Assembly: GCA_036769135.1 (NCBI GenBank)
Contig: DAIPLR010000002.1
Location: 4,797-48,582 of the forward strand
Origin: Spirochaetales bacterium
GTDB taxonomy: Bacteria > Spirochaetota > Spirochaetia > Treponematales > UBA12059
Direction: 5' to 3'
Length of the DNA stretch: 43,786 nucleotides
Below the pieces are notes generated by a model. The model saw only the letters and a list, made by a program, of their open reading frames with translations. It had not been told where the DNA came from and searched no databases. A program made the position numbers and the translations under genes. This document shows, in pieces, positions 31,479 to 37,312 of this stretch. Numbering within the stretch: the first letter of the stretch is position 1; each line of letters opens with the position of its first letter.

Positions 31479-31551
31479 AGTGAATAGCTCATACAATCGT
31501 TGAATGGGCTGGATTTTTCGACTTTCATAGCCGAAAATATTGTCGATAGTT

Positions 31552-31680
31552 TAGCCAATTTCAAAAGTCGGTTACTTTTGAAATTGGCTTTGCGATTGCT
31601 TGCGTTTGCGTTGCAAACGCTGCGCCCAATCGCAGTTTTCTAAGGTAGCTCTTTCAAAACTCGCTGAGTTTTGAAAGAGC
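31552..31680. repeat. 129-bp structured intergenic repeat, copy 1 (three perfect hairpins; AT-rich relative to genome)
   Basis: It is 100% identical to 37322..37450. Hairpin 1 is 31554-31588 (15-bp stem GCCAATTTCAAAAGT/ACTTTTGAAATTGGC). Hairpin 2 is 31592-31633 (GCGATTG...[GCGTTTGC gtt GCAAACGC]...CAATCGC). Hairpin 3 is 31648-31680 (GCTCTTTCAAAACTC gct GAGTTTTGAAAGAGC). Confidence 0.95.
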
Positions 31681-31726
31681 TTCAGTTGAATTAAAGCTCG
31701 ATTGAGGCATTATTAAGCCGGCTTGT

Positions 31727-31755
31727 TTGACAGGCCATTGACGGCGAATTATTAT
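31727..31755 (+). promoter_or_regulatory. sigma70-type promoter (-35 TTGACA, 17-bp spacer, -10 TATTAT) upstream of the STAS-YbjN-PspA cluster
   Basis: The -35 is an exact consensus hexamer with ideal spacing. It lies 57 bp upstream of ATG 31812, and an SD GGAAGAGGAG follows. Confidence 0.5.
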
Positions 31756-31811: not shown

Positions 31812-32363
31812 ATGACCAACAACGATATCGTTCCTGGTTTCGATGATGAGAAGGACGATAGCCTTAAGATCAGGCTCCAGAAAATCGACACCGTCGAGAA
31901 CTGCTTAGCCCTCTTCCTCACCGGCTATATCGATACCTACAACTCCAACTTTTTCCAAAAACGGGTCGGCAAGGCCATAGACGCTGGTTTTTCTAAGTTA
32001 GTATTTAACTGCGGCGGCTTGAATTACGTGTCTTCGACCGGCATAGGTTCGTTTACCGCCTTTTTAAAGGCCGTGAAGCCCCGTAACGGCGATATCGTCC
32101 TTCTAGAGATTCAGCCCAAGGTTTACGAGGTCTTCCAGCTCCTGGGCTTCTCCCAGTTCTTCAATATCAAAGATAATCTCGATGAGGCGGTCTCCTACTT
32201 CCAGCAAGGCTCTCAGCAGAGCACGCAAACCATCTTCCCCAAAATATTCTCTTGCCCCATATGCAATAAGAAGCTTCGGGCCGCCCGTCCGGGCCGCTTC
32301 CGCTGTTCTGAATGCAAGACCATCTTGGCCATCGACAACTCCGGGCAGGTCTTCCTCGGTTAA
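31812..32363 (+). CDS. STAS-domain protein (anti-sigma-factor antagonist-like) fused to C-terminal C4 zinc ribbon; low-GC gene
   Basis: The STAS core LVFNCGGLNYVSSTGIGSFTAF...IVLLEIQPKVYEVFQLLGF is present. The C-terminus has CPICNKK...CSECK. Its GC is ~50% against ~70% surroundings, with A/T-ending codons. Confidence 0.7.
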   Translation: MTNNDIVPGFDDEKDDSLKIRLQKIDTVENCLALFLTGYIDTYNSNFFQKRVGKAIDAGFSKLVFNCGGLNYVSSTGIGSFTAFLKAVKPRNGDIVLLEIQPKVYEVFQLLGFSQFFNIKDNLDEAVSYFQQGSQQSTQTIFPKIFSCPICNKKLRAARPGRFRCSECKTILAIDNSGQVFLG

Positions 32364-32416
32364 TCGGCCTCGCTCGCCGGAAGCTCGTCGTATGGCAGAA
32401 TAGAAGGAGATAGCCG

Positions 32417-32800
32417 ATGCAGGGACTCAGCAAGGTCGAGGCCTACCTCATGGAACTGGATATATCGTACCAAGAGGTCGCCCCCGGGACCTTCTTCATC
32501 GAGGACGAGACCCGCGGGCTCCCCGGCGTCGCCGTGACCATAGACGAGCCGGTCGTCTTCATCCGCACCAAGGTGATGGCCCTGCCTAAGGCCAAATACT
32601 GCGAGCTCTTCGAGAGCCTCCTGAGGCTCAACGCGACCGATATACTCCACGGCGCCTACGGCATCGACGGGGACGACGTCGTGCTCGTCGATACCTTGGA
32701 GTACGACAATATGGATAAGAACGAGTTCGAGGCGGCCCTCGACTCGATTGGCATGGCCCTCTCCAAGCACTACGCGGTGCTCGGGGCATACCGCGACTAA
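32417..32800 (+). CDS. YbjN-domain protein (putative sensory transduction regulator / chaperone-like)
   Basis: It is 127 aa and acidic, with a YbjN-like pattern. The family is typically found next to pspA. Confidence 0.6.
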   Translation: MQGLSKVEAYLMELDISYQEVAPGTFFIEDETRGLPGVAVTIDEPVVFIRTKVMALPKAKYCELFESLLRLNATDILHGAYGIDGDDVVLVDTLEYDNMDKNEFEAALDSIGMALSKHYAVLGAYRD

Positions 32801-32817
32801 GGATTAGGAGGCTCGCC

Positions 32818-33516
32818 GTGGGCATATTCGACCGCTTTAAGACCGTCATATCATCGAACATCAACGATATGATCTCCAAGGCTGAGAATCCCGAGAAGAT
32901 GCTCAACCAGTTGATCATCGACATGAACCAGCAGATGGTCGAGTCCAAGAAGGCCGTGGCCATGGCCATAGCCGACGAGAAGAAGATCGAGCGCGAGCTC
33001 CTCGAGCAGAAGCGCCAAGCCGAGGAATGGGAACGCAAGGCCGTCATCGCCGTCAAGGCGGGCCGCGACGACCTGGCGAAGGAAGCTTTGCTGCGCAAGC
33101 AGGAGGCGGAGAACTACTACCTGCAGCTCAAGCCCCAGTGGGAGAGCCAGAAGGCGGCCGTCGAGAAGCTCAAGGAGACGCTCAGGCAGCTCCAGAACAA
33201 GATCGACGAGGCGACCCGGAAGAAGAATATCCTCATCGCCCGCGCTAAGCGCGCCGAGGCCCAGCAGAAGATTCAGAAAACCCTGACCAGCATGTCGGGC
33301 AATACCAGCGCCTTCGAGACCTTCGACCGCATGGCCAAGAAGGTGGACGAGATGGAGGCCCGCGCCGAGGCGCACGCCGAGCTCGCCGACCTGTCCCAAT
33401 CTTCCTCGCTCGAGAAGGAGTTCTCTAAGCTGGAGAGCTCCGGCGCCGGCGCGGATCTCCTCCTGGAGGAGCTCAAGCAGAAGATGCTCGGCGAGGGCGG
33501 GACCAGCCAAGGCTAA
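32818..33516 (+). CDS. pspA: phage shock protein A / IM30 / Vipp1 family
   Basis: The N-terminus MGIFDRFKTVISSNINDMISKAENPEKMLNQLIIDMNQ is canonical. It has long coiled-coil heptads and is 232 aa. Confidence 0.9.
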   Translation: MGIFDRFKTVISSNINDMISKAENPEKMLNQLIIDMNQQMVESKKAVAMAIADEKKIERELLEQKRQAEEWERKAVIAVKAGRDDLAKEALLRKQEAENYYLQLKPQWESQKAAVEKLKETLRQLQNKIDEATRKKNILIARAKRAEAQQKIQKTLTSMSGNTSAFETFDRMAKKVDEMEARAEAHAELADLSQSSSLEKEFSKLESSGAGADLLLEELKQKMLGEGGTSQG

Positions 33517-33519
33517 TCC

Positions 33520-34191
33520 GTGCGCGCGCTGTTCGTCGGCGACGAAGGACGGTACCGCGCATTGTTCGAGGGGAGCGACCCGCTACCGGGTTGCTCCCTA
33601 TTTTTTCGCGCCGCGCTCGGCGCTCCCGACCGGGAGGCCGACCGGGAGACCGACTGCCTGATCATGCCGGCGGAGGCCTTCCTGTCGGCCGGCTTCGATC
33701 TCGAGCGGCCGCCGGTCATAGGCTACGGAGAGGGGAGCCTCCTGCCGCTCTGCCTCGGCGCGGGCGCCTTCGACTATCTTCGTGAGCCCTGGGGCCTGCC
33801 GGAGCTGGAGGCGCGGGTCCGTAGGCTCCGCGGTCGAGGCTTCGCGCTCGCCGGCGCCCGTTGCGAGCTGCGGCCCCATGAGCTGCTCGGCCCCCTGAGG
33901 GGCGTGCCTCTCTCGCCGCAGGCTTATGAGGCGCTGAGGCTGCTCGTCGATCATGCTCCCCGCGCGCTCTCGGCCGAAACCCTGCATCGAGTTCTCGGCA
34001 CGAAAGCGCCGAGCGCCTTGCCTATGGCCGTGTCGCGCCTTCGAAAAGCCATCGGGATGGCCGCCGGGAGCGAGGCGGCGAGGCGACTACGCGGAACGCG
34101 GGCCGATGCGATGCGCCTACGCGCGGATACCGAAGGCCGCTGCGCGAGCGAACGGGCCTATGCGTCATACTACCTGGCCTTGGATGCCTAA
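33520..34191 (+). CDS. atypical OmpR/PhoB-like winged-helix protein with degenerate/truncated receiver-like N-terminus (GTG start)
   Basis: The C-terminal region LSPQAYEALRLLVDHAPRALSAETLHRVLG...AVSRLRKAIG resembles trans_reg_C (LTPxEFxLLxxL...RxxLxxxVWG...RLRKKL). The N-terminus lacks the canonical acid pocket. It starts 4 nt after pspA. Confidence 0.45.
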   Translation: MRALFVGDEGRYRALFEGSDPLPGCSLFFRAALGAPDREADRETDCLIMPAEAFLSAGFDLERPPVIGYGEGSLLPLCLGAGAFDYLREPWGLPELEARVRRLRGRGFALAGARCELRPHELLGPLRGVPLSPQAYEALRLLVDHAPRALSAETLHRVLGTKAPSALPMAVSRLRKAIGMAAGSEAARRLRGTRADAMRLRADTEGRCASERAYASYYLALDA

Positions 34192-34208
34192 AGGCTGCGT
34201 TCCTATGC

Positions 34209-34440
34209 CTGTGGATAAGTGGTTGATAGCTTTGAAGTGTTAAGTAAATCTCGTCTATAGACATGTAGAATCTCGATGGGCAAACGATGATATTTGAGTT
34301 TTTTGTCGCAGTTGCATGTAATTGTATGTATAGAAAGAGAATAAAATCAGGTAACTATGTAAATAAATACCGCGGCCCGTGTTCGCGCCCAACATGATTA
34401 TTTTTATTATTCTTCCGGTATGTGCGTTACTTGTGGATAA
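34209..34440. promoter_or_regulatory. AT-rich 320-bp intergenic region containing two perfect DnaA-box 9-mers (TGTGGATAA = reverse complement of TTATCCACA) at 34209-34217 and 34432-34440, each within an 11-mer TGTGGATAAGT
   Basis: The 9-mers were read directly and are in the same orientation 223 bp apart. The surrounding sequence is <40% GC in a 70% GC genome. Confidence 0.5.
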
Positions 34441-34480
34441 GTTGTGAGGCGCCTTCTGTATAACTGCCTTTGGGCTTTGC

Positions 34481-34509
34481 TTGTCAACGAGTTAGAGCCA
34501 TGCTAGAGT
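34481..34509 (+). promoter_or_regulatory. sigma70-like promoter (-35 TTGTCA, 17 bp, -10 TAGAGT) placing the TSS within ~2 nt of ATG 34518 (leaderless candidate)
   Basis: The hexamers and spacing were read directly. No SD lies before ATG 34518. Confidence 0.35.
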
Positions 34510-34517
34510 TTGACGTC

Positions 34518-35207
34518 ATGAAACGCGTCGCGGCCCTCATTGGGAAAGCCATCGGCCTCTATCTAGCCGCGTCGCTCGCGCTCGCCGTTTACGTCGGCCT
34601 GCGCGCCTACCTCGACGCCTGGCCTATGCCCTTGGCATTAGCGGCCCTCAAGGCCGGCTATACCCTGCCGCTCCTAGCCTGGACCCCGACCGCGCTCGTG
34701 TTGTACTACTCCATGAACAGGGTCATGCGGAATCGACCGCTCGGCTACCTTCTTCTCCTGGTCTGCGGGGCTTTTTTGATAGCTTGGCCGCTGGCGTTAG
34801 CGCGCTTCGGGCTCCTCAGCCTGGATACCGAGGCGACGGAGGCCTTCAGGGGAGCGGGGCGCTCGCTATCGGCCTGGTACATAAGCCTGACGGAACTCGC
34901 GCCGGCCCAGGCCGCGCTCGCCGTCGTCGGCGTCGCGTGGCTCTTGGCCTCGGCCTGGGGGCTTACGCGCCTGGTCGGCTCAAGGCCCCTGGTGGGGGCC
35001 TTCATAGCGCCGGGCGCGGTATTCGGCTTGTGGCGTCTCGCCGAGGCCTACGCCGGCGGCGCCCTCTCGCCGGCGTTCTCCTTCGTCGGCTTGAACATAA
35101 CGCCTGCCATGCAGGCCGCGGCGCTCTGCGGCCTGACGGGCTTGGGGTTCATCGGGTTGGATTTCCTGGTCGCCGCGAAGCCGGGCGCCGAGGCCGGCCG
35201 TGGCTAA
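34518..35207 (+). CDS. polytopic membrane protein (hypothetical)
   Basis: It has 6-7 predicted TM helices. I chose the start at MKRVAAL (ATG 34518) because the track's upstream start is TTG and overlaps the promoter. ATG 34500 is an alternative. Confidence 0.5.
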   Translation: MKRVAALIGKAIGLYLAASLALAVYVGLRAYLDAWPMPLALAALKAGYTLPLLAWTPTALVLYYSMNRVMRNRPLGYLLLLVCGAFLIAWPLALARFGLLSLDTEATEAFRGAGRSLSAWYISLTELAPAQAALAVVGVAWLLASAWGLTRLVGSRPLVGAFIAPGAVFGLWRLAEAYAGGALSPAFSFVGLNITPAMQAAALCGLTGLGFIGLDFLVAAKPGAEAGRG

Positions 35208-36855
35208 GCGCGGCTCGCTCTTCATCGCCTACGCCTTAGGGATCATGGCCGCGGCCTACGCGGCGGCTTTCTTCTGGCGGCTCTTGAACGTCGGCCGCGC
35301 CGACCTGCTCTTTATCTTCGCCCTGCGTTGGGAGCTCATGGGCGCCGCGCTCACCTTCGCGGCCTGGGCCCCGGCCCTGCTCCTCGTGGCGGCCGCGCTC
35401 GCGGCCGAATCCGCCGAGGGGCCGCCCGACTTCCACGCCACGGCATACGCGGTGCTCCTGCCCGGCTTCTTCTTCGCCGCGGCGCTCTCGATCCTCTTCC
35501 TCGTGGTACAGCCCTACGCCGAGGGACGCGTCGCCTTCTATGAGCGGGCGAGCGCGGAGTTCGGCGCGCGCCTGGGCGCCGCGCGCGAGCGCTACGCCCG
35601 CGGCGACTACCGGGCGGCCGAGCTCTTCGCCCGCGACGCCCGGGCCATAGACCGGGACCATCCCGAGCTTGAGAAAGTCTACGGGCTCATCCAAGAAGCC
35701 CTCCTACGGCAGGCCGACGAGGAGGCCGAGCGCGCGGCCCGCGCCCGCCCCGAGGATCCGCCCGCGCCGAACTGGCTCGTGGCCAACCGTTTCTACCTCG
35801 AGGCGCAGGCGGCGATGCGCGACGGGCGCTATTTCGACGCCCACTACCTGGCGCGGCGCTCGCTGGCGGTTTACGGAGGTCGGCGTGAGGTCCTTAGGCT
35901 CATAGACGAGAGCTGGGCGGCAATGCGCAGCCTCGAGCCGTCGGCCGAGCAAAGGGCCGACGCCGATTACTATAAGCGCAAGCTCGAGGCCTACGAGTAT
36001 TTCGCGCGCGACGACGCGCTCGAGGCCTTCAGGCGCTTCTCCGCCCTGGCGGCCGAGCGCCCCGACGATAAGGACGCGGCTGATTTCCTCGCCTTGAGCG
36101 CCCAGAGCCTCGAGCGCCGCGGTTTCTTCCTGGAGGAGAGCGAGCTGGCCTTCGGCTCGGGCGGCGGCCGCCCTCTGTCGCTTTCGATCGCGGGCGCCGA
36201 GCTCCGCGCCGAGGCGGCGGCGGAGTCGGCCTCCGGGGTCTACCTGCGCGGCGTCGCCTTCGACGACGGCGGGCGGAGCTACCGGGCCGAGCATGCGCGG
36301 CTGAACGGCGACGTACTGCAGCTGCTCGCGGTGAGCCGGCGCGACCCGTCGCTGACATGGCGGGCGCGGGCGGCCGACGGCGGCGCGCCGCCGAGTTACC
36401 TCGAGCTAGGGGGGGCCGAGGCCGCGGCGCGCCGTTACCTGGAGCTCTCCGCGCCGCCGCACGAGCTGACCCTCCTCACGCTGATAAATGGCATGGACGA
36501 CGCGCGCGAGCTCGGCGTGGACGGCGCGGGGCTGTACGCCGACCTGGCTCGCCGCCTCTCCTATCCCTTCGTCTGCGTCATCTTAATACTCATGGGCGCG
36601 GGTCTGGGGCTGCGCTTCAGGCCCCGCTCGCGTCCGAGCGCGGTCTCGTCGATATTCTGGGCCCCGGTCATGGCCGCCTTGGTCCAGCCCGTCTTCGGCC
36701 TCGCCGAGGAGCTGTCTAAGACGCCCTTGGACCTGCTGTCGCGAGCGCTGCCCGGCGGTACCTTCATAGCCGCTTGGCTAGCCTTCCTCGGCGCGGCCGT
36801 CGCCTGCTCGCTCTTCGTCGCGGAGCGCATCGCGCGCCATGCGCCGCGCTCTTGA
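35200..36855 (+). CDS. large membrane protein: N-terminal TM bundle, ~370-aa Ala/Arg/Glu-rich helical (TPR-like) soluble domain, C-terminal TM bundle
   Basis: The hydropathy pattern was read from the translation. It overlaps its neighbours by 8 and 17 nt, suggesting coupling. I recognise no family. Confidence 0.5.
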   Translation: MAKRGSLFIAYALGIMAAAYAAAFFWRLLNVGRADLLFIFALRWELMGAALTFAAWAPALLLVAAALAAESAEGPPDFHATAYAVLLPGFFFAAALSILFLVVQPYAEGRVAFYERASAEFGARLGAARERYARGDYRAAELFARDARAIDRDHPELEKVYGLIQEALLRQADEEAERAARARPEDPPAPNWLVANRFYLEAQAAMRDGRYFDAHYLARRSLAVYGGRREVLRLIDESWAAMRSLEPSAEQRADADYYKRKLEAYEYFARDDALEAFRRFSALAAERPDDKDAADFLALSAQSLERRGFFLEESELAFGSGGGRPLSLSIAGAELRAEAAAESASGVYLRGVAFDDGGRSYRAEHARLNGDVLQLLAVSRRDPSLTWRARAADGGAPPSYLELGGAEAAARRYLELSAPPHELTLLTLINGMDDARELGVDGAGLYADLARRLSYPFVCVILILMGAGLGLRFRPRSRPSAVSSIFWAPVMAALVQPVFGLAEELSKTPLDLLSRALPGGTFIAAWLAFLGAAVACSLFVAERIARHAPRS

Positions 36856-37312
36856 GTCGGCTATCCGCGCCCTCCGCTCGGCCGCGGCCCTCGCCTTCGA
36901 ACGATCGCGCGGCCGACGCGGGCGCATCGCGGGGACCTGCCTAGGCGCGCTGAGCGGCGGCCGCCACTTTACCTTCGGCGCGCTCGCCGGCTACGTACTC
37001 GGCGCCCTGGTCGACGCGTACTTCGAGAGGCGCGCCGCGCCGGGCGACGGATACCGCGATGAGGCGGCCGCCGGCCGCGGGGCCGAACGGCGGGGCGATG
37101 CCGAGGCCGAAACGGCGGAGCGCGCTAGGCTCTACGCCCTCTTCGGGCTCGAACCCGGCGCGCCTCCCGACGAGCTAAAACGGGCGTACCGCCGCCTCTG
37201 CCGTGACATGCATCCCGATAGAAGCGGCGGCTCCGAGGAAGGCTTCCGCGCCATCAAAGCCGCCTATGACAGGCTCGCCGACGCCCCCTCCGGGGCGAAG
37301 CCGGATAGCTAG
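36839..37312 (+). CDS. membrane-anchored J-domain co-chaperone (DjlA-like)
   Basis: It has an N-terminal TM (FTFGALAGYVLGALVDAYF) and a C-terminal J domain LYALFGLEPGAPPDELKRAYRRLCRDMHPDRSGG with the HPD motif. Confidence 0.65.
   Translation: MRRALESAIRALRSAAALAFERSRGRRGRIAGTCLGALSGGRHFTFGALAGYVLGALVDAYFERRAAPGDGYRDEAAAGRGAERRGDAEAETAERARLYALFGLEPGAPPDELKRAYRRLCRDMHPDRSGGSEEGFRAIKAAYDRLADAPSGAKPDS

Follow-up and report, generated by a model that had tools for sequence, protein, structure and literature searches.

To our knowledge, the control of the initiator protein DnaA at sites other than the replication origin is understood in two model organisms only, namely Escherichia coli (datA, DARS) and Bacillus subtilis (DnaA-box clusters). 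Here we describe a candidate locus from the Spirochaetota, an AT-rich intergenic island with two DnaA boxes at positions 34192 to 34517 of a 43,786-nucleotide stretch of a Spirochaetales bacterium (assembly GCA_036769135.1, contig DAIPLR010000002.1, positions 4,797 to 48,582 of the forward strand). This whole stretch is called the window in the following. A sequence-only reading of the window had drawn attention to the two boxes and had offered several roles for them: a promoter region at which DnaA controls the downstream membrane-protein operon or a divergent small RNA, a DnaA-titration (datA-like) or secondary regulatory site, and a replication origin. Based on a comparison with orthologous loci, we regard the island on balance as a DnaA-assembly module outside the origin that is conserved in an uncultured clade of Spirochaetota, a reading that we consider probable rather than established. 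It bears on the question whether non-origin DnaA sites are a general bacterial strategy.

The datA locus of E. coli comprises two high-affinity boxes and one low-affinity box in one direction, with a single bending-protein site between them and an optimised spacing (PMC5742627). The spirochaete island resembles datA in being non-coding, in its probable non-origin character and in its two strong boxes with weak neighbours that point in one direction. The function of datA, an element of ~180-260 bp, depends on box orientation and interval (PMC5742627), whereas the equivalent property of the island, a box interval of 221-223 bp, is documented as conservation only. Between the boxes of datA lies an IHF site; the corresponding place in the island is occupied by a conserved central element that does not match the E. 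coli consensus WATCAANNNNTTR. The two loci moreover lack sequence homology, belong to different phyla (Spirochaetota versus Gammaproteobacteria) and differ in their surroundings, because the module of the spirochaetes abuts a promoter.

In B. subtilis, non-origin clusters of DnaA boxes (e.g., at sda, ywlC and yydA) regulate their neighbours and collectively modulate the timing of initiation (PMC3245932). The intergenic location of DnaA boxes outside oriC is common to these clusters and the island. The clusters harbor more strong boxes in mixed orientations, and we know of no rigid two-array geometry or central element among them, whereas the island has exactly two strong boxes that are 21 helical turns apart. 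DnaA furthermore acts at promoters, and those of dnaA, nrdAB, guaB and mioC are under its control in E. coli. It is also a transcription regulator in Borrelia, with dnaX-ebfC as one example (PMC9879097, PMC11185795). The island shares with such promoters the position of boxes upstream of a sigma-70 promoter and the potential use of DnaA as a sensor of the replication status. It differs from them in that boxes and promoter do not overlap, their distance is unphased, a second array is located 222 bp upstream, a central element is present and the mRNA is leaderless. Non-origin DnaA sites are thus known, but a two-array, fixed-spacing, centrally marked module at a leaderless promoter is undescribed in the literature searched.

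A conserved pair of DnaA-box arrays

A sequence search of the window retrieved perfect matches to TTATCCACA on the minus strand at positions 34210-34218 (box 1, which reads TGTGGATAA on the plus strand) and 34432-34440 (box 2), hence in the same orientation and 222 bp apart from start to start. The sequence-only reading had correctly recognised two exact boxes in one orientation and the coordinates of the second, but its position for the first was off by one and its spacing of 223 bp was nearly right. Box 1 lies 18 bp past the stop codon of an OmpR-like gene, and the box region extends from this stop codon (34189-34191) to the downstream start, which bears out the proposed intergenic position. 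Both boxes are enclosed in the common 11-mer TGTGGATAAGT, and the A/T tract TTATTTTTATTATT could be located between them at ~34399-34412, both in agreement with the earlier description. The GC content amounts to 40.8% for positions 34192-34517, 36.6% for the 213 bp between the boxes and 67.4% for the window, so that a value below 40%, as had been claimed for the entire island, applies to the DNA between the boxes and not to the whole interval. There are no further perfect boxes in the 43.8 kb of the window. Dinucleotide-shuffled versions of the window contained a mean of 0.05 perfect boxes, and none of 100 shuffles had two; the expectation from the base composition of the island itself is 0.004 boxes, with P(>=2) ~7e-6. 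The box pair is far beyond chance, as had been supposed. The window contains one other island that is equally AT-rich (31.45-31.95 kb), and it is devoid of a box.

The conservation of the box pair was investigated in 21 orthologous loci of uncultured Spirochaetota, which range from near-identical strains to relatives whose LptF/G-like protein is 33-48% identical. Homologues of the downstream proteins were found in uncultured Spirochaetota only, whose genomes are named as Treponematales or Spirochaetales. The gene order PspA, OmpR-like protein, intergenic region, membrane protein and LptF/G-like protein is common to all 21 loci, and the intergenic region has a length of ~310-340 bp in most of them. 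Both boxes are retained in unchanged orientation in every locus, and their distance from start to start is 221-223 bp in 20 of the 21 loci and 226 bp in the remaining one (L031). The AT-rich spacer between them (34219-34431 in the window) has diverged to such an extent that its sequence is mostly unalignable across loci, while its length has been kept. An inverted box is present in L026 and L145 only; all other strong and weak boxes have one orientation, a property that distinguishes the island from DARS.

Box 1 occurs as TGTGGATAA in 14 loci, as TGTGGAAAA in six and as TGTGCATAA in one, and box 2 as TGTGGATAA in 13 loci, as TGTGGAAAA in five and as TGTGGATAT, TGTGCATAA and TGTGGAAAT in one each. 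Accordingly, 27 of the 42 boxes are perfect and 15 are variants. The established DnaA-box consensus TT(A/T)TNCACA is degenerate at positions 3 (A/T) and 5 (N), and exactly these positions are hit in 13 of the 15 variants: eleven replace T by A at the W of TTWTNCACA and two differ at the N. The last two variants deviate at the first T alone, the CACA motif is never altered, and 40 of the 42 boxes thus fit the consensus. As read from the alignments, this is the degeneracy pattern of a DnaA box, and it would be hard to explain through another constraint. The deep conservation of the box pair and of its spacing is the strongest fact about the site. It also places the canonical TTATCCACA box under selection in Spirochaetota, a phylum with a poorly defined DnaA box.

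Each strong box is accompanied by weaker ones. Array 1 (34210-34240, plus strand) has the structure TGTGGATAA gt GGTTGATAG ct TTGAAGTGT, i.e., the strong box followed by two degenerate 9-mers with a period of 11 bp. Array 2 (34421-34463, plus strand) consists of box 2 and the degenerate 9-mers TGTGCGTTA (34421-34429), which is present in the window lineage only, TGTGAGGCG (34443-34451) and TCTGTATAA (34455-34463). The arrays were scored over 20 loci as mean similarity to TGTGNAWAA, out of 8, in dependence on the offset from the strong box. For array 1 the similarity is 5.4/8 at +11 and 4.85/8 at +22 (background 2.5, standard deviation 0.6), and for array 2 it is 5.2/8 at +11 and 3.55-3.6 at +22/+23 (background 2.3, standard deviation 0.5); at offsets -11 and -22 the box similarity is not raised in these 20 loci. 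This asymmetry shows that each site represents a directional head-to-tail array that runs from strong to weak. Such head-to-tail boxes with a spacing of 2 bp, equivalent to an 11-bp period, are known from DnaA oligomerisation regions. The consensus TGTGGAWAAnnTGTTSATTnnTTGTG is found in distant loci, and the array 2 block is invariant among close relatives. A search for further degenerate boxes, suggested by the sequence-only reading, has thus been rewarded at +11 and +22 of each strong box.

The midpoint between the strong boxes is spanned by a central AT-rich element (GTAATTGTATGTATAGAAAGAGAATA, 34319-34344) that is conserved in its register. Its clade consensus TTAATTnCATnTATnAAAAGnAATTA has a length of 26 bp and forms a partial palindrome, TAATT...AATTA. 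In the ungapped register of 20 loci the information content peaks from +108 to +133 relative to box 1, the positions T120, A121, T124, T143 and A144 are invariant in alignment A4, and the AT profile of the spacer is highest at the centre. A GC-rich patch at 34371-34391 is confined to the window lineage.

One contig from activated sludge (L075, positions 1-1750) begins like the L033/L045 type: the OmpR-like gene with its GC-rich 3' end is followed by array 1 and the spacer; the 34-nt core of its array 1 is identical to that type, and the remainder was compared by eye. The exact match ends at the central element, beyond which an IS4-like transposase and unrelated low-GC genes are located. Either an IS element has inserted into the AT-rich central element, or the contig is a chimera of the assembly. 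The latter may apply because the contig never returns to spirochaete sequence, and L075 was therefore not used as evidence that the module is dispensable.

The identity of the binding protein was approached by a scan of public metagenomes for the composite array motif, which resulted in at least 120 loci (L034-L153). Among the matches listed, six represent the present spirochaete locus, and most others are unrelated, mainly low-GC contigs with tandem boxes at 0/+11/+22, typically TGTGGATAAnnTGTTGATAAnnTGTG. Of the listed loci, 39 show 1.5 kb or more of flanking DNA on each side, and 7 of these 39 have dnaA or dnaN within 2.5 kb. The occurrence on unrelated contigs and the enrichment beside dnaA/dnaN identify the composite as a general DnaA-array motif that is independent of the OmpR-like gene, and they favour DnaA over the neighbouring OmpR-like protein as the binder. 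We therefore consider it very probable, judged from these sequence comparisons, that DnaA binds here, irrespective of whether the island serves as an assembly module, a simple operator or an origin.

The alternative is that the boxes are operators of another protein and that their match to DnaA is coincidental. The top candidate is the OmpR-family winged-helix protein encoded at 33520-34191, which is degenerate and weakly similar to Trans_reg_C, KdpE, PrrA and BasR and whose gene is located directly upstream of box 1 in all relatives with its stop codon 14-33 bp from the box. Proteins of the OmpR family bind direct repeats with a period of 10-11 bp; the motif TGT recurs every 11 bp in the arrays, which is reminiscent of a Pho box, and the second 9-mer TGTTSATT is unusually well conserved. 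However, the DnaA consensus shows little or no change at its seven specified positions and varies at its two known degenerate ones, and the composite array is common, among the matches listed, in unrelated low-GC bacteria outside the context of an OmpR-like gene and is enriched beside dnaA/dnaN. A coincidental match thus appears very unlikely. The OmpR-like protein may nevertheless bind alongside DnaA, but such a co-factor role is not needed to explain the sites.

The metagenome matches listed also show that head-to-tail triplets of DnaA boxes at 0/+11/+22 are widespread in unrelated bacteria. Given that only 7 of the 39 listed loci with visible flanks are situated beside dnaA/dnaN, many of these arrays are located at other, uncharacterised loci. 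Two related contigs (L063, L066) are unusually dense and periodic, with 22-24 DnaA boxes per 830 bp and a repeating unit of ~106 bp.

Comparison with replication origins

The island has several features in common with oriC, the dnaA-dnaN origin of Borrelia burgdorferi and the basal unwinding system (BUS), namely boxes with head-to-tail weak neighbours, AT-rich DNA and a probable architectural-protein site. It could accordingly be the chromosomal oriC of the clade displaced from dnaA, with two arrays that flank an AT-rich unwinding region and an architectural-protein site. Perfect and deeply conserved boxes with a rigid spacing and a variable spacer sequence are a classical origin signature, and the flanking synteny is highly conserved. 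The mapped origin of Borrelia is likewise intergenic, with a length of 240 bp and no more than two hypothesised DnaA boxes, and the oriC region of this genus binds the bending protein Hbb. The search rule for BUS is a box, a spacer of <=16 bp, >=3 NAN DnaA-trios and then AT-rich DNA (Pelliciari et al., PMC8287927). The window formally agrees with this rule: 16 nt past box 2, as read on the minus strand, there is a run of six NAN trios (GAA GAA TAA TAA AAA TAA). However, at least three trios are present in 9 of 20 loci only, and the closest relatives L007, L009 and L012 have two. The BUS/DnaA-trio core was therefore rejected, as the pattern of the window is not conserved across loci.

The genomic context also differs from that of known origins. 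Neither dnaA nor dnaN was detected by Pfam scans and tblastn within -34/+9.5 kb of the site in the window, within 10 kb on either side in L012 and L014 or within ~5-6 kb on either side in 16 genomes (~5-10 kb over 20 relatives taken together), and tblastn searches with DnaA and DnaN had no hit in the window or L001-L033. The corresponding remark of the sequence-only reading has thus been confirmed. The genes parAB, gidA and rpmH were not found in the Pfam scans of the window genes, and the annotated stretches of the window, L012 and L014 contain no other origin-linked gene, whereas the known and predicted spirochaete origins described so far adjoin dnaA. The number of boxes is low as well: each module has two strong boxes compared with a median of 5.5 in dnaA-adjacent regions with the same array, and a count of boxes with <=1 mismatch over 830 bp in 19 loci gave two to three in 18 of them and one in L014. 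In contrast to origins, the AT maximum is central and ~100 bp away from either strong box, no unwinding element is located beside a box, and the 40-60 bp adjoining box 2 are ~50% AT across loci and GC-rich in the window. Finally, transcription runs towards the site in roughly two thirds of the coding DNA of the left 34 kb.

The GC skew, from which the sequence-only reading had expected a possible refutation of its proposals, was determined but cannot decide the matter. The raw skew, pooled over 18 loci with 5 kb per side, does not switch at the site, with values of +0.003 (left) and -0.005 (right). The GC skew at third codon positions is ~-0.22 on the coding strand of every window gene, which corresponds to a preference for C-ending codons, and after correction for gene orientation it is ~0 on both sides of the site in the window. 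This residual value indicates that the GC skew is uninformative in the lineage, and it was not counted against an origin; with no residual replication-strand component, skew-based origin finding is generally weak in this lineage. The absence of dnaA and dnaN from the surrounding DNA, the presence of only two strong boxes, the lack of trio conservation and the distance between the AT maximum and the boxes nonetheless suggest that the site is probably not the origin of the chromosome, and a displaced oriC appears very unlikely.

Promoter, leaderless start and proposed mechanism

A promoter scan of the island revealed a sole promoter-like site, a sigma-70 promoter on the plus strand (34481-34509) with a -35 element TTGTCA (34481-34486), a 17-nt spacer ending in TGC and a -10 element TAGAGT (34504-34509). 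The TGC of the spacer provides the TG of an extended -10 element, and the pattern TTG[T/C]CA-N17-TAnnGT is present in all 21 loci. The start codon ATG of the membrane-protein gene (34518-34520, plus strand) follows 8 nt past the -10 element, and the equivalent gap is 7-9 nt in all loci. The gene has no Shine-Dalgarno sequence, whereas such sequences are present at neighbouring genes, and the short gap without a ribosome-binding sequence makes the mRNA of the membrane protein leaderless. The start predicted by gene callers, ATG 34500 (235 aa), falls inside the extended -10 region of the promoter (CATGCTA) and is out of frame in loci with a gap of 7 or 9 nt. Judged by this comparison, the conserved start is ATG 34518, resulting in 229 aa; the annotation is thus corrected, and the gene is flagged as leaderless. 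The operon comprises three reading frames on the plus strand (34518-35207, 35200-36855, 36839-37312) with overlapping stop and start codons, which encode the 229-aa membrane protein, a 551-aa LptF/G-like protein and a J-domain protein.

Box 2 is located 49 bp upstream of the -35 element in the window, and array 2, which is oriented towards the -35 element, ends ~17 bp upstream of it. A DnaA-controlled promoter of the membrane-protein operon, one of the roles offered by the sequence-only reading, thus remains viable. The distance between box 2 and the -35 element is 46-53 bp in 18 loci and 74, 97 and 148 bp in the other three (L033, L031, L024), where the module is intact despite 25-100 bp inserted before the promoter. 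The far tighter internal spacing is indicative of a self-contained architectural unit. This observation bears on a simpler explanation, an ordinary DnaA-dependent operator with no part in DnaA homeostasis, in which box 2 represses or activates the leaderless promoter and box 1 is auxiliary. The position of array 2 at ~-86 to -56 relative to the start codon or transcription start, its direction towards the -35 element and the invariant promoter are in agreement with an operator; the regulation of promoters by DnaA is well established, and in Borrelia genes for the envelope and for morphology are affected by this protein. However, the internal spacing of 222 bp varies far less than the distance to the promoter, and a single operator would have no need of a second array at a distance of 21 turns or of a conserved central element. 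We therefore regard an operator of this kind as rather unlikely.

Still less can be said in favour of a small RNA or a structured 5' leader encoded by the island, which would make the boxes incidental. The conserved length of the spacer and a -10-like motif TCGTATA ~50 bp past box 1 in many loci would be compatible with a transcript. An internal promoter at this motif or at the central element was however rejected, because a consistent -35 element and a conserved final T are missing. The window contains no Rfam family at the gathering threshold, and the best matches, sroD with 16.5 bits (E = 1) and the S10-Clostridia leader with 14.1 bits (E = 2.2), are far below their gathering scores. A terminator scan of the island was negative, neither strand folds as stably as shuffled sequences do (minimum free energy, z = +1.2 and +1.1), and a leader is precluded by the operon transcript, which begins at the ATG. 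The divergent small RNA of the sequence-only reading is consequently not supported, and we consider an RNA-based explanation in general extremely improbable. Small open reading frames were also inspected as candidates; the island has frames of 20-46 aa only, none of which is conserved.

The assembly module that we favour would operate as follows. The high-affinity box would nucleate DnaA in each array, and ATP-DnaA would extend from there along the phased weak boxes. An interval of 222 bp corresponds to ~21 helical turns, which places both arrays on one face of the helix. Folding of the AT-rich spacer could occur at the central element, either through an architectural protein (HU/IHF/Hbb type) or through the flexibility of the DNA itself, and the two DnaA oligomers might then meet in a single higher-order complex, as at datA of E. 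coli. Given that array 2 grows towards the -35 element of a strong promoter, the occupancy by DnaA, presumably ATP-DnaA, would tune the operon according to the replication status. In addition, the complex would retain a pool of DnaA and might render it inactive. The best reading of the output is that the module links the adjacent operon to the state of DnaA, serves as a buffer for DnaA or does both. The sites and their DnaA-type variation, the arrays, the spacing, the central element and the promoter with its leaderless start are observed in this scheme, and the binding of DnaA, the folding and the output are inferred.

A more specific proposal by analogy is that the module functions like datA, i.e., that phased oligomers folded at the central element sequester or inactivate ATP-DnaA after initiation. 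The strong boxes in the same orientation, their weak neighbours, the central element and the rigid spacing all fit a DnaA-titration or datA-like site, and the respective suggestion of the sequence-only reading is accordingly viable, although we regard this particular function as a tentative possibility. If true, it would represent the first such locus outside the models from Proteobacteria and Firmicutes, found by comparative genomics alone. With an envelope-related operon beside a PspA stress operon, the locus is a candidate for DnaA homeostasis or for a coupling of replication and envelope biogenesis.

Several observations weigh against a DnaA-assembly module with a transcriptional output. 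The central element has no match to the IHF consensus of E. coli by inspection, and a specific 10-11 bp peak of helically phased AA/TT that would indicate intrinsic curvature was not detected. The second 9-mer of array 1, TGTTSATT, is conserved as well as the strong box and thus better than expected for a weak DnaA site, suggesting that a second protein may share the site. Work on Borrelia suggests that the specificity of spirochaetal DnaA can deviate (PMC9879097). The insertions before the promoter in three loci imply that promoter control may be secondary. Moreover, the promoter is located outside the putative loop, and its distance from box 2 shows no helical phasing, which argues against a direct contact with RNA polymerase and renders the transcriptional output uncertain.

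Gene neighbourhood

According to Pfam scans of essentially all its open reading frames, the window is an ordinary stretch of chromosome from a diderm with flagella. Among its genes are those of the flagellar rod and the series pyrG-lptC-lptA-lptB followed by a sigma-54 activator; tRNA genes are absent from the window. The island directly follows an envelope-stress operon on the plus strand (31812-34191), which encodes a STAS-domain protein, a YbjN-like protein, PspA and the degenerate OmpR-like winged-helix protein. The latter, the last product of the PspA operon (33520-34191, 223 aa), combines an N-terminus that resembles a degenerate receiver domain with a weak winged helix of the OmpR type.

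The STAS gene is preceded at ~85 bp by a near-consensus sigma-70 promoter, TTGACA-N17-TATTAT (31727-31755). This promoter is kept at an equal distance in all six other loci checked (L007, L009, L012, L014, L015, L017), with TAAGAT as the -10 element of L014, and probably represents the promoter of the PspA operon. With a sigma-70 promoter, the operon would not depend on sigma-54, unlike its equivalent in E. coli.

Further upstream, the intergenic region harbours an insertion of 136 bp (31548-31683) in the window, L001 and L002, which is missing from the otherwise near-identical strains L005 and L003 and from L012. It comprises two long palindromes, TTTCAAAAGT...ACTTTTGAAA and TTTCAAAACT...AGTTTTGAAA, is flanked by AGTT on both sides and looks like a miniature mobile element. 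This strain-specific insertion, which belongs to the other AT-rich region of the window, carries the sigma-54-like motif TGGCTTTGCGATTGCT; a sigma-54 promoter was not recognised by inspection of the box island. The STAS-domain protein itself (31812-32363) has a zinc-ribbon-like tail of the type CxxC...CxxC (CPICNKKLRAARPGRFRCSECKT, encoded at 32230-32330), which is unusual for anti-sigma-factor antagonists.

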